DNA of 64,000 bases from Escherichia coli (lineage in GTDB: Bacteria > Pseudomonadota > Gammaproteobacteria > Enterobacterales > Enterobacteriaceae): the NCBI RefSeq assembly GCF_044324875.1, contig NZ_CP172185.1. The stretch is one strand, 5' to 3'. Below the pieces are notes generated by a model. That model had not been told where the DNA came from and made no database searches. It was given only the letters and a program-made list of their open reading frames with translations. Shown piece after piece: positions 529-52,674 of this stretch (position 1 is its first letter; each line of letters starts with the position of its first letter). Both the position numbers and the translations under genes were made by a program.

Positions 529-3260
529 CGCATCTGGAACTGGGTCCCGTCCCGCCTGTCGCGCAACTGGCGGGCGTGAGCCAGCATTATGGAAAAACCG
601 TTGCGCTGAACAATATCACTCTCGATATTCCGGCCCGCTGCATGGTTGGGCTGATTGGTCCGGATGGCGTCGGGAAGTCGAGTTTATTGTCATTGATTTC
701 CGGTGCTCGTGTCATTGAGCAGGGCAATGTGATCGTGCTGGGCGGCGATATGCGCGACCCGAAGCATCGTCGCGACGTTTGCCCGCGCATCGCCTGGATG
801 CCGCAGGGGCTGGGCAAAAACCTCTACCACACCTTGTCGGTGTATGAAAACGTCGATTTTTTCGCTCGCCTGTTCGGTCACGACAAAGCGGAGCGGGAAG
901 TGCGAATCAATGAGCTGCTGACCAGCACCGGCTTAGCACCGTTTCGTGATCGTCCGGCAGGGAAACTCTCCGGCGGGATGAAGCAAAAACTTGGGCTGTG
1001 CTGTGCGTTAATCCACGACCCGGAACTGTTGATTCTTGATGAGCCAACAACGGGGGTTGACCCGCTCTCCCGCGCCCAGTTCTGGGATCTGATCGACAGT
1101 ATTCGCCAGCGGCAGAGCAATATGAGCGTGCTGGTCGCCACCGCCTACATGGAAGAGGCCGAACGCTTCGACTGGCTGGTAGCGATGAATGCCGGAGAAG
1201 TGCTGGCAACCGGCAGCGCCGAAGAGCTGCGGCAGCAAACGCAAAGCGCCACGCTGGAAGAAGCATTTATAAATCTGTTACCGCAAGCGCAACGCCAGGC
1301 GCATCAGGCGGTAGTGATCCCACCATATCAACCTGAAAACGCAGAGATTGCCATCGAAGCGCGCGATCTGACCATGCGTTTTGGTTCCTTCGTTGCCGTT
1401 GATCACGTCAATTTCCGCATTCCACGCGGGGAGATTTTTGGTTTTCTTGGTTCGAACGGCTGCGGTAAATCCACCACCATGAAAATGCTTACCGGACTGT
1501 TGCCCGCCAGCGAAGGTGAGGCGTGGTTGTTCGGGCAACCGGTTGATCCAAAAGATATCGATACTCGCCGTCGGGTGGGCTATATGTCGCAGGCGTTTTC
1601 GCTCTATAACGAGCTCACCGTGCGGCAAAACCTGGAGTTACATGCCCGTTTGTTTCACATCCCGGAAGCGGAAATTCCCGCAAGAGTGGCTGAAATGAGC
1701 GAGCGTTTTAAGCTCAACGACGTTGAAGATGTTCTGCCGGAGTCATTACCGCTCGGCATTCGCCAGCGGCTTTCGCTGGCGGTGGCGGTGATTCATCGCC
1801 CGGAGATGTTAATCCTCGATGAGCCTACTTCTGGTGTCGATCCGGTGGCGAGGGATATGTTCTGGCAGTTGATGGTCGATCTCTCGCGTCAGGACAAAGT
1901 GACTATCTTCATCTCCACCCACTTTATGAACGAAGCGGAACGTTGCGACCGCATCTCCCTGATGCACGCCGGAAAAGTGCTTGCCAGCGGTACACCGCAG
2001 GAGCTGGTTGAAAAACGCGGAGCCGCCAGTCTGGAAGAGGCATTTATCGCCTATTTGCAGGAAGCGGCAGGGCAGAGCAACGAAGCCGAAGCGCCGCCTG
2101 TGGTACATGACACCACCCACGCGCCGCGTCAGGGATTTAGCCTGCGCCGTCTGTTTAGCTACAGCCGCCGCGAAGCACTGGAATTGCGCCGCGATCCGGT
2201 CCGTTCGACGCTGGCGCTGATGGGAACGGTGATCCTGATGCTGATAATGGGTTACGGCATCAGTATGGATGTGGAAAACCTGCGCTTTGCGGTGCTTGAC
2301 CGCGACCAGACCGTCAGTAGCCAGGCGTGGACGCTCAATCTCTCCGGTTCCCGTTACTTTATCGAACAACCACCGCTCACCAGTTATGACGAGCTGGATC
2401 GCCGGATGCGTGCGGGCGATATCACGGTGGCGATTGAGATTCCACCCAATTTCGGGCGCGATATCGCGCGTGGTACGCCTGTGGAACTCGGTGTCTGGAT
2501 CGACGGTGCGATGCCCAGTCGTGCCGAAACGGTAAAAGGTTACGTGCAGGCTATGCACCAGAGCTGGCTACAGGATGTGGCGAGCCGACAATCCACACCC
2601 TCCAGCCAAAGCGGGCTGATGAACATTGAGACGCGCTATCGCTATAACCCGGACGTAAAAAGCCTGCCAGCGATTGTTCCGGCGGTGATCCCGCTTCTGC
2701 TGATGATGATCCCGTCAATGCTAAGCGCCCTTAGCGTGGTGCGGGAAAAAGAGTTGGGGTCGATTATCAACCTTTACGTGACTCCCACCACCCGTAGCGA
2801 ATTTTTGCTTGGCAAACAGCTACCGTACATCGCGCTGGGGATGCTGAACTTTTTCCTGCTCTGCGGCCTGTCGGTGTTTGTGTTTGGCGTACCGCATAAA
2901 GGCAGTTTCCTGACGCTCACCCTGGCGGCGCTGCTGTATATCATCATCGCCACCGGAATGGGGCTGCTGATCTCCACCTTTATGAAAAGCCAGATTGCCG
3001 CTATTTTCGGTACGGCGATTATCACGTTGATCCCGGCGACACAGTTTTCCGGGATGATTGATCCGGTAGCTTCGCTGGAAGGTCCAGGACGCTGGATCGG
3101 CGAGGTTTACCCGACCAGTCATTTTCTGACTATCGCCCGTGGGACGTTCTCGAAAGCGCTGGATCTGACTGATTTGTGGCAACTTTTTATCCCGCTGCTG
3201 ATAGCCATACCGCTGGTGATGGGCTTAAGCATCCTGCTGCTGAAAAAACAGGAGGGATGA
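525..3260 (+). CDS. rbbA: Ribosome-associated ATPase RbbA: two ABC ATPase domains fused to an ABC-2 permease domain
   Basis: 911-aa ORF with two Walker A motifs ([18 protein letters not shown]), two ABC signature motifs ([16 protein letters not shown]) and a hydrophobic C-terminal permease domain. Confidence 0.9.
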
Positions 3261-4384
3261 TGCGCCATTTACGCAATATTTTTAATCTGGGTATCAAAGA
3301 GTTGCGCAGTCTGCTCGGTGATAAAGCGATGCTGACATTGATTGTCTTCTCGTTTACGGTGTCGGTATATTCGTCAGCGACCGTCACGCCAGGATCATTG
3401 AACCTCGCGCCGATCGCCATTGCCGATATGGATCAATCGCAGTTATCGAATCGGATCGTTAACAGCTTCTATCGTCCGTGGTTTTTGCCACCGGAGATGA
3501 TCACCGCCGATGAGATGGATGCCGGACTGGACGCCGGACGCTATACCTTCGCGATAAATATTCCGCCTAATTTTCAGCGTGATGTCCTCGCCGGACGCCA
3601 GCCAGATATTCAGGTGAACGTCGATGCCACGCGCATGAGCCAGGCATTCACTGGCAACGGTTATATCCAGAATATTATCAACGGTGAAGTGAACAGCTTT
3701 GTCGCGCGCTACCGTGATAATAGCGAACCGTTGGTATCGCTGGAAACCCGGATGCGCTTCAACCCGAACCTCGATCCCGCGTGGTTTGGCGGGGTGATGG
3801 CGATCATCAACAACATTACCATGCTGGCGATTGTGTTGACCGGATCGGCACTGATCCGCGAGCGTGAACACGGCACGGTGGAACACTTACTGGTGATGCC
3901 GATAACGCCGTTTGAGATCATGATGGCGAAGGTCTGGTCGATGGGGCTGGTGGTGCTGGTGGTGTCGGGATTATCGCTGGTACTGATGGTGAAAGGCGTG
4001 CTGGGCGTACCGATTGAAGGCTCGATCCCGCTGTTTATGCTGGGCGTGGCGCTGAGTCTGTTTGCCACCACGTCAATCGGCATTTTCATGGGGACGATAG
4101 CGCGTTCGATGCCGCAACTGGGGCTGCTGGTGATTCTGGTGCTGCTGCCGCTACAAATGCTTTCCGGTGGATCCACGCCGCGCGAAAGTATGCCGCAGAT
4201 GGTGCAGGACATTATGCTGACCATGCCGACGACACACTTTGTTAGCCTCGCGCAGGCCATTCTCTACCGTGGTGCAGGATTCGAAATCGTCTGGCCGCAG
4301 TTCCTGACACTGATGGCAATTGGCGGCGCGTTTTTCACCATCGCACTGCTGAGATTCAGGAAGACAATTGGGACAATGGCGTAA
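3257..4384 (+). CDS. yhhJ: ABC-2 family transporter permease
   Basis: ATG at 3257 overlaps the rbbA stop (ATGA) and gives 375 aa starting MMRHLRNIF; the ORF-track start at 3176 would overlap rbbA by 85 bp and is probably an artefactual extension. Multi-pass hydrophobic C-terminus. Confidence 0.85.
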
Positions 4385-4394
4385 ATACAGTTGC

Positions 4395-4427
4395 CCGATG
4401 CGTAAGCTTATAGGGTCTACGCATCGG
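4395..4427. terminator. Perfect 10-bp inverted repeat (CCGATGCGTA / TACGCATCGG) between convergent yhhJ and the aldolase gene; candidate bidirectional terminator
   Basis: Inverted repeat read directly from the sequence, 11 bp after the yhhJ stop and followed by a T-rich tract (TACAATTTATTG). Confidence 0.4.
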
Positions 4428-4474
4428 TACAATTTATTGAATTGTAGTTGTTTTACGCCGCATCCGGCGAAGAT

Positions 4475-5326
4475 TTACTTAACCAACCGATGCCCCTCAT
4501 TCATCATCAGGATTTTGCTATACACATCTTCCTCGACGGCGTTTTTTGCTGATGCCATCACTCGTGCCAGATTCGCCTCGTTGTGATTATTCACATACGC
4601 TTTGCCGACGGCGGTGATAAACGCTTTGCGCAGATCGCTGGCGATATTTACTTTAGCGACGCGATAATTAACAAAGCTGCGTAATATTTCCGGGGCGATA
4701 CCGGAGCCGCCGTGAATAACCAGCGGCACCGGGCAGACTTCGGCAATGCGCTTCAGCAGGGGGATATCGATACGCGGTATATCGTCCAGGCCATGAACGT
4801 TGCCAATAGAAACTGCCAGCATGTCGCAACCGGTGCGCTCGACAAAGGTCTTCACCTTTTCCGGTTCCGTTTTGCAATCGGCTTCGCTGACGTGATCATC
4901 TTCTTTGCCGAGAATCGCCCCCAGCTCCGCTTCAACCGGTACGCCATAGGATTTACAGAAATCGACAGCTTCCTGGGTGAAAGCGATATTCTCTTCAAAA
5001 GATAATGCGGCACCGTCAATCATGACCGAGGTAAAGCCCGCGCGCACCGCCTGTTTAACATCCTCCTGAGTTTTCCCGTGATCCAGATGAAGACTGACCG
5101 GAACATCCATTTTATCGGCGTGACGTTTCACGATTTCATAAATGTAATCGTATCCCGAGAGTTGTGCATTGGTGGGCGCAATCTGAATGAAGTTGGGTAA
5201 TCCTGAACGCTCAATGGCGTTTAAAATTGAAATCGTCGTCTCCAGATTGGTGGTATTAAACGCGCCCGCTAATACCCGTTTTTCCTGAATGCGGTCGAGC
5301 AGTATCCGTCCATTAACTAATGGCAT
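4475..5326 (-). CDS. Class II ketose-bisphosphate aldolase (FbaA/GatY/KbaY family)
   Basis: 283-aa ORF with class II aldolase hallmarks: metal-binding His-containing motifs (LHLDHG, VIHGGSG) and an N-terminus typical of tagatose/fructose bisphosphate aldolases. Confidence 0.8.
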   Translation of the reverse strand: MPLVNGRILLDRIQEKRVLAGAFNTTNLETTISILNAIERSGLPNFIQIAPTNAQLSGYDYIYEIVKRHADKMDVPVSLHLDHGKTQEDVKQAVRAGFTSVMIDGAALSFEENIAFTQEAVDFCKSYGVPVEAELGAILGKEDDHVSEADCKTEPEKVKTFVERTGCDMLAVSIGNVHGLDDIPRIDIPLLKRIAEVCPVPLVIHGGSGIAPEILRSFVNYRVAKVNIASDLRKAFITAVGKAYVNNHNEANLARVMASAKNAVEEDVYSKILMMNEGHRLVK

Positions 5327-5356
5327 TTGAAAACCTCATCTTTTAATATCAGTTAA

Positions 5357-5626
5357 TTATTCAGCTTCACCGAAGCGATCACGAAATAAGGCGGTGAGAG
5401 TTTGTATTGCCTCATTTTCATCATCGCCTTCGCAGCGTATTTCCACCGTTTTGCCGCCTTTTATTCCGGCGCGCATAATATTCATCATGCTGGTGGCATT
5501 AATATCATTACCCTCATAATGCAGCGTCACTTTACAGCTAAACTTTTTGGCGGCTTTCACCAGACACGCCGCCGGACGTGCATGCAGGCCAGTACTGTTT
5601 CTGACCTCCACGGTTTTACTCAACAT
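5357..5626 (-). CDS. HPr-family phosphocarrier protein (PTS paralogue)
   Basis: 89-aa ORF with the HPr active-site context NSTGLHARPAA (phosphorylatable His) and HPr-like size. Confidence 0.8.
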   Translation of the reverse strand: MLSKTVEVRNSTGLHARPAACLVKAAKKFSCKVTLHYEGNDINATSMMNIMRAGIKGGKTVEIRCEGDDENEAIQTLTALFRDRFGEAE

Positions 5627-7124
5627 AGTGCTCCTCCCGATGGTGTAATGGCATCACGCCTTCTTGCTGTAATTTCAACTGATACCAGCTTTTCCATTTG
5701 TGCTGATAACGCTGTAATTGATGGTATCTCGCCCGATTCGGTAACAAACGTTGGGCTATGGTAACTTGCGGCGGTGGAATATCCGGTGCGGCAGTTAATA
5801 ATGCTCCGACAGAAACCGCCTCGTTAAATGCAATTGCTTCAACCGGACGCTGTAAAATATCCGCTTTTAATTGCAGCCAAAGGGGATTTTGGGTTGCCGG
5901 ACCTATCACTTTTAACGCGCTGGTGCCAGGCACATTAAAACAGGCGAAGCAGTTGGCAAATTCCATGGTTAATCCCAGTGAGACGCTGGCAATTAACATG
6001 TCGATATTTAACGTATCGCCAAGCCCATAAAATAATCCACGAGTATGGCGATTTTTATAGGGCGAACCCGAACCGCGAAGATGTGGAATAAAGAGGGGAA
6101 TGTCATCGAGCGACCAGTTCCCCGCCAGGTAATCCGCATGTCCGCGAGTAAGTGATGCGGCGATCTCCTCATCGGTTAGCCGGAACGTGTTACGCAGCCA
6201 CTCCAGAGCGAAACCGCCCACGGGCAGCGACGCAAACAGGGTGAACTGGTTTGCAAGCGAATAACAGCCGTTTGCCAGCTTGTCACGTTTGGCCTGTTCA
6301 TCCAGCGTCGGTTGTGTATCCAGTTGCAGAATGCCTTCTGTGGTCCCCGTCGAGTTAAGGATATCGCCCGGCATCATCTGCAACGCTCGCGCACCCACCA
6401 TATGGTCATGTCCGGCCAGCGTCACGCTGACCGGTTGCGAGAACCCAAGCGTTTTGCAGAGCGACTCGCTGACCCATCCGGCGTGTTCGCCTGGCTGCAC
6501 CAATGGCGCAAATGCTGAACAGGGAACGTGTAACAACGCCGCCGCTTTCGCTGACCATTCGCCTTTGCGCACGTCAAGACACAGCGTGCGGCTGGCTAAG
6601 GTGATATCCGTGCGCTGTTCGCCGGTCAGCCGCCAGAGCAGTACTTCCGGCGCATGTAGCCAACGCAGGCCGCGGCGATTACGCAGTGGGTAATGTTCCA
6701 GCAACCAACGCATTTTGAAGGCAGAGTAATTGCTGTGCAGCGGTAACCCGCAAATGTCATAAAGTGCCGCACTGTCTGCCTCGCTAAGTGTTGCCAGATA
6801 CTCTTCACCGCGACGGTCATACCATGCCAGCATTGGCGTCAGGATCTCGCCATGCTCGTCAAGGAACACGCCTGACTCGCCAAAACTGGCAATGCTTATC
6901 CGCCTGACTGGCAGCGGCGAAGCGGCGTTCAGTTGCGCTATCGCCTGGCGGACCTCCTGCCAGAGGGCGTCGATATCGAAATCGACATTGCCCTGTGGGG
7001 AGATCTGTTTTGCCGTCACGAATTTATGCGCGCCCAACGTCGTTGCGTCCAGGCAGGAAAAGCAGGTGACTTTGCAATTGGTGGTGCCAATATCGATAAC
7101 GATAGCTGCGCTGTTATCAGGCAT
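5616..7124 (-). CDS. FGGY-family carbohydrate kinase
   Basis: 502-aa ORF; N-terminal DIGTTNCK nucleotide-binding motif and internal GHDH and GTTEG motifs typical of the glycerol/xylulose/fuculose kinase superfamily. Confidence 0.8.
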   Translation of the reverse strand: MPDNSAAIVIDIGTTNCKVTCFSCLDATTLGAHKFVTAKQISPQGNVDFDIDALWQEVRQAIAQLNAASPLPVRRISIASFGESGVFLDEHGEILTPMLAWYDRRGEEYLATLSEADSAALYDICGLPLHSNYSAFKMRWLLEHYPLRNRRGLRWLHAPEVLLWRLTGEQRTDITLASRTLCLDVRKGEWSAKAAALLHVPCSAFAPLVQPGEHAGWVSESLCKTLGFSQPVSVTLAGHDHMVGARALQMMPGDILNSTGTTEGILQLDTQPTLDEQAKRDKLANGCYSLANQFTLFASLPVGGFALEWLRNTFRLTDEEIAASLTRGHADYLAGNWSLDDIPLFIPHLRGSGSPYKNRHTRGLFYGLGDTLNIDMLIASVSLGLTMEFANCFACFNVPGTSALKVIGPATQNPLWLQLKADILQRPVEAIAFNEAVSVGALLTAAPDIPPPQVTIAQRLLPNRARYHQLQRYQHKWKSWYQLKLQQEGVMPLHHREEHYVE

Positions 7125-8475
7125 AAACCGTGCTCCGCGTCATTCGGAAAATACCATACAGTACCAGGGCGATAACCGGCACCAGACCAATGGCGATGAG
7201 ATTGCCGTTGAAGATTTCCAGCAGCCAGAAGCGGAACGGGTTACCGCCATCAAGGAAACTGGAGACCTGGCCGCTGGAGCCTTCGGCAAATTTGAAATTA
7301 ACGTCTTTCGCCATTCCGGTAATAAACGGCGCGATTTTAGTCGCAATCCACAGATCGGCAATAATCACCGGAATCGCCGCCAGAACGGTGCGGAAAATGT
7401 TGCCACGGCTGGCTAAAGCAATCATCGACGCCATTACCGCCAGGTTGGCAAGGTCGCCAAGCGGCAGGACTTCATTACCCGGAAGGACAAACGCGATAAA
7501 GACCGAGATTGGCGTCAGCAGCAGGGCGGTGGAGATAATCGCTGGGTTACCTACGGCAACGGCGATATCCAGGCCGATATAGAGATCGTCACGGTCAGGG
7601 TATTTGGCATTGAGATACTTTTTAATGGCTTCAGACAGCGGTAATAAACCTTCCATCAGAATGCGAACCATGCGTGGCAGGATGAACATCACACCGCCAA
7701 TGCTGATGCCAAGCAGCAAGACTTTTTTGAAATCGTATCCGGCAATTACGCCGAGCAGAATGCCCAGAATAGTACCAACCATCATCGGTTCGCCGAATAT
7801 GCCAAACTTTTTCTGTACGGTTTCCGGATCGATATGAATACGATTGAGGCCGGGGATATGGTCGATGATTTTGTCGACCAACAGACCGACCGGAAAGAAC
7901 ACCACCGAAGAGAGCGTCGGCAAAGAGATCCCTTCCAGGCCAAAGTATTTTTGTACCAGTGGCGCAGACCAGTCGGCGAGTTTAAGTACTACCACCGCAG
8001 CAATCGCCGCTGCCAGCAAACCAAAGAACAGGCTGCCGGTGCTGTAATAAACCAGCGTACCGGCAAGGGCAAAATGCCAGTAGTTCCACATATCTACGTC
8101 AACGGTGCGGGTTTTATTTAACGCCAGCATCGCCACGTTAATCAGAATAGTCAGGGGAATAACAAACGGGGCAATTGGCGAACCCCATGTAATAGCGGAA
8201 AGCGGCGGCCAGCCTAAATCCACCACCGGTAAATTAATTCCGGTGCGTTCAACCATCGCCTGGGCCGCTGGCCCGACATTGCTGGTAAGAATATCGAAAA
8301 TGGCATAAATACCGACAAAACCAATGCCGACCGTTAATGACGAACGTAAGGCTTTAGCGGGTTTTACTTTAAAAAAGAGAGCAAGAATAAATAACACCAA
8401 CGGCAACATTACCGTGGGACCAAATCCCAATATATATTGCACAATATTATAGAGGGTATGCGCGATATCGTTCAT
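7117..8475 (-). CDS. PTS EIIC permease, galactitol (Gat) family
   Basis: Polytopic membrane protein of about 452 aa, GatC/SgcC-like. Start chosen at the ATG at 8475, preceded by AAGAGG 7 nt upstream; the ORF-track start at 8505 lacks a ribosome-binding site. Confidence 0.8.
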   Translation of the reverse strand: MNDIAHTLYNIVQYILGFGPTVMLPLVLFILALFFKVKPAKALRSSLTVGIGFVGIYAIFDILTSNVGPAAQAMVERTGINLPVVDLGWPPLSAITWGSPIAPFVIPLTILINVAMLALNKTRTVDVDMWNYWHFALAGTLVYYSTGSLFFGLLAAAIAAVVVLKLADWSAPLVQKYFGLEGISLPTLSSVVFFPVGLLVDKIIDHIPGLNRIHIDPETVQKKFGIFGEPMMVGTILGILLGVIAGYDFKKVLLLGISIGGVMFILPRMVRILMEGLLPLSEAIKKYLNAKYPDRDDLYIGLDIAVAVGNPAIISTALLLTPISVFIAFVLPGNEVLPLGDLANLAVMASMIALASRGNIFRTVLAAIPVIIADLWIATKIAPFITGMAKDVNFKFAEGSSGQVSSFLDGGNPFRFWLLEIFNGNLIAIGLVPVIALVLYGIFRMTRSTVYA

Positions 8476-8551: not shown

Positions 8552-8833
8552 TTACTTTTTAAGGATCGAAACAATTTGCGCCAGTACTTTCTCTTCGCCA
8601 ATACCGGTAATAATCGGCAAGCCGTTAACCACCGGGACGTCGAGTTCATAAGGCACTTTAGTCGTTGAGACTACCAGTGCTACGCCGTCAGTATTTCCAG
8701 GTAAAGAGGCAACGTTGGTTTGGGAATAATTGACGTTAAGACCGTGCTCTTTACAATATTCCATGACTTTTTCTGTTACCGCCGTGGATGTGGCAATACC
8801 CGTGGCGCAGACAAATAAAATGGTTTGACTCAT
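8552..8833 (-). CDS. PTS EIIB component (galactitol-type, Cys phosphorylation site)
   Basis: 93-aa ORF beginning MSQTILFVCATGIATS, the conserved N-terminal Cys motif of GatB-type EIIB. Confidence 0.8.
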   Translation of the reverse strand: MSQTILFVCATGIATSTAVTEKVMEYCKEHGLNVNYSQTNVASLPGNTDGVALVVSTTKVPYELDVPVVNGLPIITGIGEEKVLAQIVSILKK

Positions 8834-9303
8834 ATTTCACCTCGTTCTTTCATTTTGTTTAAGATTACTGTGTGTATTTCTGTTGTTTCCATCGTAAGCA
8901 GGGCGCGCATAAAGGGCGTATCCTGAATCATCTCCATAATCCAGCCCAGGGCATTTAATTGTTTATTACTTTCACTTAAGGCGAGCAAAAAAATCACCCT
9001 GACATGTACGGGGTCAGGATCGCCGCCCATATCGGCAAACTCTACCGGTTCCGGAAGGATGCCGACGGCAATTGCATTGTGCCTGACATATTTATGGTCC
9101 GTGTGCGGAATGGCGACGCACGGTGGTTCGGTAGGCAGCCCCGTTGGGTACGTCGCCTCACGTTTCAGTACGTGATCGGCAAAATCAGGGACCACCAGCT
9201 CAGCAGCAACCAACGGTTGCGCTAACTGACGGATGATCTGTTCAACGCTTAACCCTGCCGGAAGTCGTTGAATATAATTTTCCTGAAACTGTATGCCTTG
9301 CAT
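8830..9303 (-). CDS. PTS EIIA component (fructose/mannitol-type EIIA-2 fold)
   Basis: About 157 aa; start at the ATG at 9303, preceded by GAGGAA; contains the conserved His region (AIPHTDHKYV). Stop overlaps the EIIB start. Confidence 0.75.
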   Translation of the reverse strand: MQGIQFQENYIQRLPAGLSVEQIIRQLAQPLVAAELVVPDFADHVLKREATYPTGLPTEPPCVAIPHTDHKYVRHNAIAVGILPEPVEFADMGGDPDPVHVRVIFLLALSESNKQLNALGWIMEMIQDTPFMRALLTMETTEIHTVILNKMKERGEI

Positions 9304-9327: not shown

Positions 9328-10074
9328 TTAACTCAATTCCCGCCGTTGCAGCACGGTGCCCAGATAATATTTATTTCCTTTTAACCAGACGTTGCCAAAC
9401 TCAACGGGTAACTCTCGGGAGAAAAAGACTAATTGCTCCAGATGCAAAACGGGTGCATCTTCACAGATATCTAAAAAATGACCGCGTTCATTACCAATTA
9501 ATCGCGCGGCATAGCGACTTTCCGAGTAACGAATTTTTCTTTTCGACAAACTTTCTATTGTTGGAAATAAATTGTGTTGATTAAAATCGATTTCCACGAT
9601 GCCGGGGCATAGCTCAATATTGATACGGTTCTCTATCAGCATCGCTTTTTCATCACCAATTGAACGTAAACGCTCAAGGTAAAGAATATCCTGACCGGGC
9701 GTTATTCTTAATTTCTCTGCCACATAACGATTAGCCGGTTCAATCCGTGACGTAATAACTTCAGTGGTAAAGTGTATTTTCTGGCTTTCCAGCGATTCCG
9801 CGAATGACAATAATCCTTCACCTAACGGATATGCCACGTTCTCTTTTTTGACAAATGTTCCCTTCCCCTGGACCTGAATCAACACGCCTTGTTTTACCAG
9901 TTGGGCGACAGCTTTTTTAACGGTTCCCCGACTCACTTCCAGCATATCCATAATCTGGTATTCCGAAGGAATGCGATCGTCTTCCACCAGATCCCCGGTA
10001 TAAATATTTTCTCTTATCCACTCCACCACTTGTTGATAGAGCGGTATTTGTGACGACTTACTCAATGATTTCAT
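9328..10074 (-). CDS. GntR/HutC-family transcriptional regulator (winged-HTH plus UTRA effector domain)
   Basis: N-terminal GntR HTH signature (IPSEYQIMDMLEVSRGTVKKAVAQLVKQGVL) and a C-terminal UTRA-like domain; ATG at 10074 is preferred over the GTG at 10083. Confidence 0.8.
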   Translation of the reverse strand: MKSLSKSSQIPLYQQVVEWIRENIYTGDLVEDDRIPSEYQIMDMLEVSRGTVKKAVAQLVKQGVLIQVQGKGTFVKKENVAYPLGEGLLSFAESLESQKIHFTTEVITSRIEPANRYVAEKLRITPGQDILYLERLRSIGDEKAMLIENRINIELCPGIVEIDFNQHNLFPTIESLSKRKIRYSESRYAARLIGNERGHFLDICEDAPVLHLEQLVFFSRELPVEFGNVWLKGNKYYLGTVLQRRELS

Positions 10075-10096: not shown

Positions 10097-10122
10097 GTTG
10101 TCTATGGACAATCATGGACAAC
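10097..10122. promoter_or_regulatory. Candidate operator: inverted repeat GTTGTC...GACAAC containing the palindrome TTGTC-TATG-GACAA and a direct repeat of ATGGACAA
   Basis: Read directly from the sequence, 23 bp upstream of the HutC-family regulator start; HutC-type operators are commonly GT/AC-containing palindromes. Confidence 0.3.
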
Positions 10123-10272
10123 TTCAAGCGTATAGTAGGTGAACAGGCGAAAAAGAGGATCGAAGCGTCTCACATTTTAGGGGACTAAATCGTGATCAAA
10201 AAAATGTGACGTGAGTCGATATTTGGCAGAAGTCTACTGCGCCGTCAGGAAATAACGGCGCGTTGGGAGGTG

Positions 10273-13075
<2,803 letters not shown>

Positions 13076-51960: not shown

Positions 51961-52674
51961 ATGGAAAAAGTCATGTTGTCCTTTGACAAAGTCAGCGCCC
52001 ACTACGGCAAAATCCAGGCGCTGCATGAGGTGAGCCTGCATATCAATCAGGGCGAGATTGTCACCCTTATTGGCGCGAACGGGGCGGGGAAAACCACCTT
52101 GCTCGGCACATTATGCGGCGACCCGCGCGCCACCAGCGGGCGAATTGTGTTTGATGATAAAGACATTACCGACTGGCAGACGGCGAAAATCATGCGCGAA
52201 GCGGTGGCGATTGTCCCGGAAGGGCGTCGTGTTTTCTCGCGGATGACGGTGGAAGAGAACCTGGCGATGGGCGGTTTTTTTGCTGAACGTGACCAGTTCC
52301 AGGAACGCATAAAGTGGGTGTATGAACTGTTTCCGCGTCTCCATGAACGCCGTGTTCAGCGGGCGGGCACCATGTCCGGCGGTGAGCAGCAGATGCTGGC
52401 GATTGGTCGCGCGCTGATGAGCAACCCGCGTTTATTGTTGCTTGATGAGCCATCGCTCGGTCTTGCGCCGATTATCATCCAGCAAATTTTCGACACCATC
52501 GAGCAGCTGCGTGAGCAGGGGATGACCATCTTCCTCGTCGAGCAGAACGCCAACCAGGCGCTAAAGCTGGCGGATCGCGGCTACGTGCTGGAAAACGGTC
52601 ATGTAGTGCTCTCCGATACCGGCGACGCGCTGCTGGCGAATGAAGCGGTGAGAAGTGCGTATTTAGGCGGGTAA
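51961..52674 (+). CDS. livF: Branched-chain amino acid ABC transporter ATP-binding protein LivF
   Basis: 237-aa product starting MEKVMLSFDK; Walker A GANGAGKTT and signature MSGGEQQM. Confidence 0.9.
   Translation: MEKVMLSFDKVSAHYGKIQALHEVSLHINQGEIVTLIGANGAGKTTLLGTLCGDPRATSGRIVFDDKDITDWQTAKIMREAVAIVPEGRRVFSRMTVEENLAMGGFFAERDQFQERIKWVYELFPRLHERRVQRAGTMSGGEQQMLAIGRALMSNPRLLLLDEPSLGLAPIIIQQIFDTIEQLREQGMTIFLVEQNANQALKLADRGYVLENGHVVLSDTGDALLANEAVRSAYLGG

Follow-up and report, generated by a model that had tools for sequence, protein, structure and literature searches.

A seven-gene island in the chromosome of Escherichia coli, between yhhJ and nikR, is best explained as a self-contained, mobile, horizontally spread catabolic cassette for a ketose, most simply a hexulose or a heptulose. 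It lies in a stretch of 64,000 nucleotides (hereafter the window) and encodes a sugar phosphotransferase system (PTS), an FGGY-family kinase (K1), an HPr-like phosphocarrier, a class II aldolase and a transcriptional regulator. Comparison with related loci gives good support to the idea that the pathway phosphorylates each sugar twice, and that a PTS driven by phosphoenolpyruvate (PEP) and a kinase driven by ATP are interchangeable for one of these phosphorylations. Regarding the order of the steps, we give even chances to the reading of the sequences in which the PTS product would receive its second phosphate from K1 and the resulting bisphosphate would then be cleaved by the aldolase. The components of the island are the following.

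9328..10074, minus strand: GntR/HutC-family regulator, with helix-turn-helix and UTRA effector domains, first in the operon (NCBIfam GntR matches; RefSeq start used)
8830..9303, minus strand: PTS enzyme IIA (IIA), of PTS_EIIA_2 or Gat-Fru-Mtl type, with an 'AIPH' phospho-histidine motif (GatA model)
8552..8833, minus strand: PTS enzyme IIB (IIB; PTS_IIB), with Cys9 in an 'LFVCATG' motif (GatB model)
7117..8475, minus strand: PTS enzyme IIC (IIC) of the galactitol (Gat) family (TIGR00827)
5616..7124, minus strand: FGGY-family kinase K1, 502 amino acids (aa) (open reading frame (ORF) call, PF00370 and PF02782)
5357..5626, minus strand: HPr-family phosphocarrier, 89 aa, His15 and Ser46 present (TIGR01003, 106 bits for a cutoff of 47.9)
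4475..5326, minus strand: class II (zinc) aldolase dependent on dihydroxyacetone phosphate (DHAP), 283 aa, NF005943 family (NCBIfam profile and residue alignment)
10098..10111, no strand: candidate GntR operator, palindrome TTGTCTATGGACAA (pattern conservation; predicted binding)
4385..4474, no strand: boundary of the island on the yhhJ side, with a sequence resembling repetitive extragenic palindromic (REP) elements and a hairpin with a 10-bp stem, CCGATGCGTA...TACGCATCGG (read from the sequence)

The window comes from an E. coli chromosome: it matches strain BEC1-S17-ESBL-09 at 100% identity and strain 042, whose RefSeq annotation shows the same gene set, at 99.9%. The seven genes are co-directional on the minus strand and are flanked by yhhJ (3260-4384, plus strand) and nikR (10273-10674, minus strand). 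The IIC stop overlaps the K1 start by 8 nt, the HPr start overlaps the K1 stop, and about 24 nt separate the regulator from IIA, an arrangement that suggests one operon. A preliminary description of positions 4475-7124 had placed an aldolase and an FGGY kinase there, downstream of a PTS and lacking a GatZ/KbaZ-like partner subunit. The ORFs do end exactly at these positions (aldolase stop and kinase start), the Gat-family IIC, IIB and IIA genes lie directly upstream with the phosphorylation sites of IIB and IIA intact, and the island encodes no GatZ/KbaZ-like protein. The HPr gene (5357-5626) had gone unmentioned, although it lies in the same interval.

We gathered 87 loci encoding K1 homologues, 80 from a kinase-alignment scan of one genome per species and seven from look-ups of individual proteins, called their ORFs and classed the neighbours by BLASTP against the cassette proteins. 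K1 always adjoins an NF005943-like aldolase, except where the end of a contig truncates the locus. The loci follow three layouts. Type A (47 loci), the layout of the E. coli island, has the regulator, IIA, IIB, IIC, K1 and the aldolase, with or without HPr, and no other enzyme. It is found in enteric bacteria (E. coli, Salmonella, Klebsiella oxytoca, Citrobacter, Cedecea, Rahnella) and in the Enterococcus avium group, Listeria immobilis, Selenomonas, Pectinatus, Pediococcus, Lacticaseibacillus and Mitsuokella. Its flanks hold unrelated genes, such as those for GGDEF proteins and betaine transporters, and no PfkB kinase, isomerase or hydrolase; nor is a phosphatase encoded in the cassette (0 of 47 loci). 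We had considered that a neighbouring PfkB kinase might make K1 redundant, and this was discarded since there is none beside E. coli-type cassettes. Type A cassettes lack an isomerase, a dehydrogenase and a hydrolase, and hence their substrate should already be a ketose.

Type B, or polyol-type, cassettes (23 loci in Pantoea, Erwinia, Raoultella, Serratia, Gilliamella, Bacillus and Staphylococcus pseudoxylosus, among others) associate K1 and the aldolase with a divergent Gat-type PTS and one or two Zn-dependent polyol(-phosphate) dehydrogenases, including a GatD-like one (238 bits to galactitol-1-phosphate 5-dehydrogenase). They often include a phosphatase: SurE in Pantoea (locus L006, 12687-13475), Erwinia and Enterobacter, and a histidine phosphatase in Gilliamella (L051, 10999-11637). 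Type C (16 loci, all in Actinobacteria) has no PTS. Its operon has overlapping genes in the order aldolase, K1, K2 and sometimes K3, and is accompanied by a divergent GntR regulator, ABC (ATP-binding cassette) or major facilitator superfamily (MFS) transporters and, often, a dehydrogenase. K2 is an XylB-like FGGY kinase (305 bits on XylB for a cutoff of 380; signature Q-H-S-D-V). K3 (about 447 aa; L081, 11047-12390; L088, 11059-12402; and others) keeps K1-like G-E and H-D-H motifs, but Lys137, Asn132 and Tyr133 are gone; it is a degenerate K1 paralogue and may be inactive or regulatory.

The key observation is the complementary distribution of the PTS and K2. IIC occurs without K2 at 70 loci, K2 without IIC at 16, and the two together at none, the one remaining locus being a 1.3-kb contig. 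The robust reading of this distribution is that the pathway needs two phosphorylations per sugar. The overlap between the IIC stop and the K1 start is itself found in most loci.

The cassettes seem to have moved widely. Between E. coli and the cassettes of Enterococcus and Listeria, IIC is 77-78% identical and the aldolase 68-69%, against 37-38% for K1; towards polyol-type cassettes, IIC identity is 56-58%. Such high type A IIC and aldolase identities across phyla point to a recent inter-phylum transfer of a single specificity. Between E. coli and the type B cassette of Raoultella, identities are 90% for the aldolase, 56% for the PTS and 38% for K1. Because they differ by block in this way, the PTS-K1 block and the regulator-aldolase-HPr block appear to be exchangeable.

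K1 is a member of the FGGY family, as indicated by matches to PF00370 and PF02782 in a 98%-identical E. coli representative (P0001) and in other homologues. It falls below every NCBIfam equivalog cutoff, scoring 147 bits on XylB (cutoff 380), 129 on GlpK (590) and 121 on FucK (471). With the characterised kinases of the family (GlpK, XylB, GntK, FucK, RhaB, AraB, LyxK, EryA, LsrK) it shares the two-domain fold, Asp11, the catalytic Asp240, the W-x-D-R-R and ASRT motifs and a phosphate-2 loop, 'GTTEG'. Unlike theirs, its gene is linked to that of a PF01116 aldolase and to those of either a PTS or a second FGGY kinase. Asp11, Asp240 and Gly260-Thr261-Thr262 are invariant in 14 diverse members, and Asp240 in 86 of 86. 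A kinase lacking its catalytic residues, a possibility raised in the preliminary description, can therefore be set aside. Neither K1 nor the aldolase has a close solved structure. In a profile search of the PDB, K1 scored highest with glycerol (170 bits), gluconate (167) and xylulose kinases (153), and much lower with FucK (89) and RhaB (69). These scores led us to reject our earlier view of K1 as a C1-kinase of FucK/RhaB type, which an 'FGxxG' motif and an N-terminal FucK match had suggested.

Five positions have been described as specificity determinants of FGGY kinases, corresponding to Arg83, Glu84, Tyr135, Asp245 and Phe270 of GlpK (PMC3245297). In our alignment, their equivalents in K1 are Gly82, Glu83, Asn132, Asp240 and Gly264. 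Across 86 K1 proteins of types A, B and C, the first is Gly in 79 (otherwise Ala), the second Glu in 78 (Gln), the third Asn in 82 (His), the fourth Asp in all 86 and the fifth Gly in 85 (Ala). This G-E-N-D-G signature, conserved in about 92% of the 86 proteins, matches none of the nine described FGGY groups (GlpK is R-E-Y-D-F, and XylB and GntK are of M-H type). These positions thus stay fixed in spite of the rapid divergence of K1, whose overall identity among homologues is about 36%, which suggests that K1 sees the same substrate in all three layouts. Arg83 and Phe270, which close the pocket of GlpK, are both Gly in K1. The pocket would then be roomy, which suggests that its substrate is far bigger than a triose.

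The aldolase scores 557 bits on the NCBIfam 'class II aldolase' model NF005943 (cutoff 364), 240 on GatY (383), 180 on KbaY (542) and well under the cutoffs of all models of fructose-bisphosphate aldolases (FBAs). It is thus outside GatY/KbaY, consistent with the lack of a GatZ/KbaZ partner, which is missing from the island and was not recognised beside the 87 related cassettes either, where neighbouring ORFs are annotated in part. Among solved chains, YdjI and the sulfofructose-1-phosphate aldolase SqiA score 148-158 bits, and FBA and AgaY 160-165 bits. We aligned 85 K1-linked aldolases with AgaY and the FBAs of Staphylococcus aureus and Thermus. His83, His178, His205, Asp82, Glu134, Glu142, Asn24, Asn227 and Ser208-Gly209 are invariant in the 85 proteins, and the zinc, catalytic and C1-phosphate residues typical of PF01116 are intact.

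The picture is different at the other end of the substrate. In the class II FBA of Helicobacter pylori, the ligands of the 6-phosphate are Ser49, Arg259 and Arg280' of the partner subunit, and SqiA has Ala in place of Arg280 (PMC10665668). The Thermus enzyme, with Ser49, Arg257 and Arg278 (the arginine of a 'DPR' motif), confirms this mapping. Arg280' presumably corresponds to Arg331 of E. coli FbaA. The equivalent distal anion site of the window aldolase consists of Ala50, Arg233 and Ala254, with a family-specific Lys141. Two of the three ligands of FbaA/GatY/KbaY-type enzymes are thus lost, and only the Arg259 equivalent, Arg233, is kept. This residue is found in 83 of the 85 aldolases, where AgaY has Lys, the S. 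aureus FBA Gln and YdjI Cys. The pocket is also surrounded by invariants specific to the family: Lys141 (beside the catalytic Glu142), Gln48, Thr52 and Asn53. Because Arg233 is kept and the family has invariant residues of its own, the distal site has been remodelled and not just lost; it is no canonical site for a hexose 1,6-bisphosphate. The premise of the preliminary description, an aldolase of the GatY/KbaY/FbaA type, fails at this site. PF01116 also includes members that cleave monophosphates.

How could these parts work together? In the order that we favour, the GntR/HutC repressor would occupy the palindrome upstream of its own gene and allow expression of the seven-gene operon once a pathway intermediate appears. 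The Gat-family PTS, fed by the HPr of the island, would import the sugar as a monophosphate, as suggested by its intact phosphorylation sites. K1 would then use ATP to phosphorylate the sugar again, at its opposite end, which is the unusual step, and the zinc aldolase would split the bisphosphate into DHAP and an aldose phosphate, namely glyceraldehyde 3-phosphate from a hexulose or erythrose 4-phosphate from a heptulose. In type B cassettes (Pantoea, Raoultella, Bacillus and similar), another Gat-type PTS and polyol-phosphate dehydrogenases would feed the same kinase-aldolase core. In Actinobacteria, an ABC or MFS transporter and the XylB-like kinase would replace the PTS. Two arguments concern the position phosphorylated by K1. 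First, XylB-type kinases phosphorylate the terminal carbon far from the keto group, so that an XylB-like K2 would leave to K1 the C1 position needed by the aldolase. Second, the GatD-like dehydrogenase of type B reproduces the gat pathway, and the step then missing is a ketose-6-phosphate 1-kinase.

Several observations weigh against this order. Arginine is found in none of the 85 aldolases at the position of the DPR arginine, which is Ala, Ile or Val in 84 and Lys in one; the Ser49 position is Ala in 79 of 85, and only 64 of 85 have Arg or Lys at the residue following the DPR-arginine position. YdjI and SqiA, the two PF01116 enzymes characterised as cleaving ketose 1-monophosphates, also lack the DPR arginine, which is present in all the bisphosphate aldolases that we compared. 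The closest solved relatives of K1 are not the C1-kinases FucK and RhaB, and K1 evolves much faster than IIC and the aldolase. Finally, described FGGY kinases act on unphosphorylated polyols, ketoses, gluconate or autoinducer-2 (AI-2), and none is known to act on a phosphorylated sugar (PMC3245297). Our literature searches found no precedent for such an activity, which the preliminary description had rightly called unusual for the family. Its proposal that the kinase adds a second phosphate to the PTS product is thus borne out in part: the PTS-or-K2 pattern argues for two phosphorylations, and fits K1 acting before or after the aldolase equally well. We attempted to order them from the covariation of K1 with the PTS module or with the aldolase; the argument fails because K1 is about 35-40% identical between all clades. 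The complete proposal, in which K1 would be the first FGGY kinase with a phosphorylated-sugar substrate and the aldolase would bind the distal phosphate in a new way (through Arg233 and Lys141), together forming an unrecognised and widely transferred pathway for a dietary or plant ketose, has in our view slightly less than an even chance of being right. L-sorbose, D-tagatose, D-psicose and heptuloses are guesses at the substrate.

The most serious alternative, which we regard as unlikely, resembles liver fructolysis: the PTS or K2 would produce a ketose 1-phosphate, the aldolase would cleave it into DHAP and a free aldose, and K1 would phosphorylate this aldehyde or its reduced form. The PTS-or-K2 pattern fits it just as well, PTSs commonly yield fructose 1-phosphate, tagatose 1-phosphate or sorbose 1-phosphate, and the aldolase lacks the DPR arginine and Ser49, like YdjI and SqiA. 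The closest solved relatives of K1 are glycerol kinases, and E. coli GlpK accepts glyceraldehyde. A signature that is invariant across cluster types fits a common downstream product, and the weaker constraint on the K1 sequence fits a salvage step. However, the pocket of K1, where Gly replaces both Arg83 and Phe270 of GlpK and Asn replaces Tyr135, looks too open for a triose. The XylB-like K2 is expected to phosphorylate the end far from the keto group and not C1, and the near-invariant Arg233 and invariant Lys141 of the aldolase point to a distal group that is anionic. The products of known polyol-phosphate dehydrogenases are mostly ketose ω-phosphates, for which a C1 kinase is required. Moreover, bacterial routes based on ketose-1-phosphate aldolases are not known to handle the aldehyde by kinases, and use dehydrogenases or reductases.

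It is improbable that the island is a second gat/tag system, as database names such as 'PTS galactitol transporter' imply, with K1 as a kinase of tagatose 6-phosphate (or 1-phosphate) and a GatY-like aldolase that needs no GatZ. The Gat-family PTS, the GatD-like dehydrogenase of type B and the PF01116 aldolase do mirror the gat operon, GatY and KbaY are the top-scoring named subfamilies after the aldolase's own family, and E. coli K-12 has no dedicated tagatose-6-phosphate kinase and uses PfkA instead. But every PTS component is below its galactitol equivalog cutoff, and the aldolase is below those of GatY and KbaY and lacks the DPR arginine that AgaY has. Galactitol cannot be the substrate of the E. 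coli-type cassette, which lacks a dehydrogenase. E. coli and Salmonella carry gat elsewhere, and Salmonella also carries tag. Papers of 2013 and 2024 still give the Salmonella island an unknown specificity (PMC3604774, PMC11000858). Finally, K1 could act on a free intracellular sugar, supplied by removal of the phosphate from the PTS product (like the role of MapP when enterococci use maltose) or by uptake outside the PTS, and place the C1 phosphate for a monophosphate cleavage; free sugars are the normal substrates of FGGY kinases (PMC3245297), polyol-type cassettes encode a SurE or histidine phosphatase and the distal site of the aldolase looks of monophosphate type, but this is very improbable given that none of the 47 E. 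coli-type cassettes encodes a phosphatase, that the PEP-derived phosphate would be wasted, that half of the carbon would end up in an aldehyde that bears no phosphate and has no enzyme to take it further, and that the actinobacterial K2 would be redundant although it is co-translated with K1.

The favoured order, a PTS monophosphate that receives a second phosphate from K1 before aldol cleavage, shares its logic with four known systems, in which an ATP-dependent kinase adds the second phosphate to the PTS product and an aldolase yields two triose phosphates. These are fruBKA (fructose 1-phosphate, FruK, fructose 1,6-bisphosphate), the D-tagatose systems of Klebsiella and Bacillus licheniformis (tagatose 1-phosphate, TagK, GatY), gat (galactitol 1-phosphate, GatD, tagatose 6-phosphate, PfkA, GatYZ) and lacABCD (tagatose 6-phosphate, LacC, LacD). 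Further likenesses are the Gat-family PTS, the PF01116 aldolase and the GatD-like dehydrogenase of type B relatives. The second kinase is of the PfkB or PfkA family in all four systems, whereas it is an FGGY kinase in the island; unlike gat-type systems, the island has no GatZ/KbaZ partner, and its aldolase lacks the canonical arginine and serine that bind the distal phosphate. The other relevant comparison is with the E. coli ydj cluster (kinase YdjH, aldolase YdjI, Zn-dehydrogenases YdjJ and YdjL) and with SqiA, where PF01116 aldolases cleave ketose 1-monophosphates whose distal group is not a phosphate. YdjI, whose substrate carries a distal carboxylate, lacks the DPR arginine like the island aldolase: it has Leu at this position and Gly at position 49, and Cys where the island family has the near-invariant Arg233. 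The ydj cluster, with a kinase, an aldolase and two Zn-dehydrogenases, also resembles the polyol-type cassettes. The kinases of the ydj and SqiA systems differ from K1 in being of PfkB type and acting on free sugars, which enter by MFS transporters and not by a PTS.

All three PTS proteins of the island miss the galactitol equivalog cutoffs: IIC scores 475.6 bits on TIGR00827 (cutoff 542), IIB 60 on the GatB model (95) and IIA 54.5 on the GatA model (139). IIC belongs to the wider Gat family (PF03611). With these scores, and with no dehydrogenase in the E. coli-type cassette, the system is not a GatABC galactitol PTS, and the database label 'galactitol' is to be read as the name of a family and not of a substrate. 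The translations contain the phosphorylation sites of the relay, with HPr GLH15ARP, the His of IIA 'VAIPH' and the Cys of IIB 'LFVC9ATG', and the PTS looks functional. Dedicated HPr genes are found in enteric cassettes and in some of Bacillus and Paenibacillus. Their presence in the latter two, which have a general HPr, hints at a specific role, possibly the control of K1. HPr phosphorylates GlpK in Firmicutes and inhibits LsrK, and by analogy a direct contact between HPr and K1 is conceivable. We looked in K1 for the histidine that HPr phosphorylates in GlpK, and found a non-conserved Lys at the aligned position.

The regulator belongs to the GntR/HutC family, with NCBIfam matches of HutC/PhnF/TreR type and Pfam GntR and UTRA domains in its orthologues. 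A perfect palindrome, TTGTCTATGGACAA, lies 24 bp upstream of its start, with an additional adjoining TTGTCCAT half-site (region 10112-10125). Each of the 21 enterobacterial type A loci analysed contains the pattern TTGTCYATRGACAA exactly once, always at the equivalent position. The palindrome is probably the GntR operator, and the operon is probably autoregulated. A similar palindrome with two mismatches, TTGTCCTTTGACAA, lies far from the island (window 51976-51989) and is within chance expectation. The hairpin after the aldolase stop is probably a terminator or a REP element, judging from its sequence; a simple terminator scan did not flag it. Promoter and terminator scans gave counts no higher than in shuffled sequence and were not used.

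The full island is present in 1635 of 5426 complete E. coli genomes (about 30%). It is an all-or-none trait in this species: genomes without it match the query at the yhhJ end only. O157:H7 has it intact, adjoining nikR. In O157:H7 strain E32511 (L089, 458-1089), the REP/hairpin boundary that separates yhhJ from the aldolase gene has received a hicA/hicB toxin-antitoxin pair, which the window lacks. Orthologues of K1 are found across Enterobacterales at 61-80% identity; 2353 sequences from Salmonella enterica form one cluster, at 63%. The Salmonella locus has the same seven genes and adjoins uhp-like genes. K1 is 63% identical between Salmonella and E. coli, compared with 89-90% for IIC and the aldolase. 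From its neighbouring genes and the locus tags, we take this locus to be STM3779-STM3785. The island STM3779-85 was reported in 2013 to have been gained by the ancestor of S. enterica subspecies I, with unknown specificity (PMC3604774), and STM3780-85 was placed under 'unknown sugars' in 2024 (PMC11000858). The two species differ in chromosomal site (the yhhJ-nikR interval in E. coli, the neighbourhood of uhp-like genes in Salmonella) and at the 3' end of the operon, where the order is K1-aldolase-HPr in Salmonella and K1-HPr-aldolase in E. coli. The PTS of the E. coli island presumably corresponds to Z4875-Z4877 of strain EDL933, which we matched by position, next to nikR in O157:H7, and by locus tag. 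Z4875-Z4877 carry the annotation of a galactitol PTS, and their expression rises in the contents of the bovine rumen, small intestine and rectum (PMC6199705). Searches of the literature by locus tag and keyword found no functional study of the island.

The island was therefore already known as an orphan in the literature. What is new is the family of three layouts in which a PTS or a kinase replaces one another, the signature of K1, the missing DPR arginine of the aldolase and the operator. Among the accessory sugar loci of E. coli it is a common one, present in O157:H7 too, and to know its substrate would be to identify a nutrient niche of enteric pathogens. K1 probably adds at least a tenth specificity to the FGGY family, as a kinase of a sugar phosphate or of an aldose product, neither of which has been described for this family. 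If our proposal is true, the K1-aldolase pathway is carried by about 30% of E. coli, by S. enterica, by enterococci and by many bacteria associated with plants or insects. The G-E-N-D-G signature and the distal site of the aldolase (Ala50, Lys141, Arg233 and no DPR arginine) provide handles for further work. So do the conserved operator, for inducer screens, and the PTS-free actinobacterial aldolase-K1-K2 operon, which should be easier to reconstitute in vitro.

Two minor observations concern relatives of these genes. A database protein of 313 aa (P0081) combines FGGY_C and EIIC-GAT Pfam domains and is 97% identical to the C-terminus of K1; it is probably a frameshift or an assembly artefact and not a true fusion. 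In Enterococcus raffinosus (L034, 9896-17440), E. malodoratus (L035) and E. avium (L036), a second cluster lies directly downstream of the cassette. It encodes a PF01116 aldolase (about 50% identical), a protein of about 650 aa, three small ORFs and a Zn-dehydrogenase, with the addition, in L034 and L035 only, of a distant FGGY kinase (26%). This cluster may be a further system of sugar uptake, FGGY kinase and aldolase.

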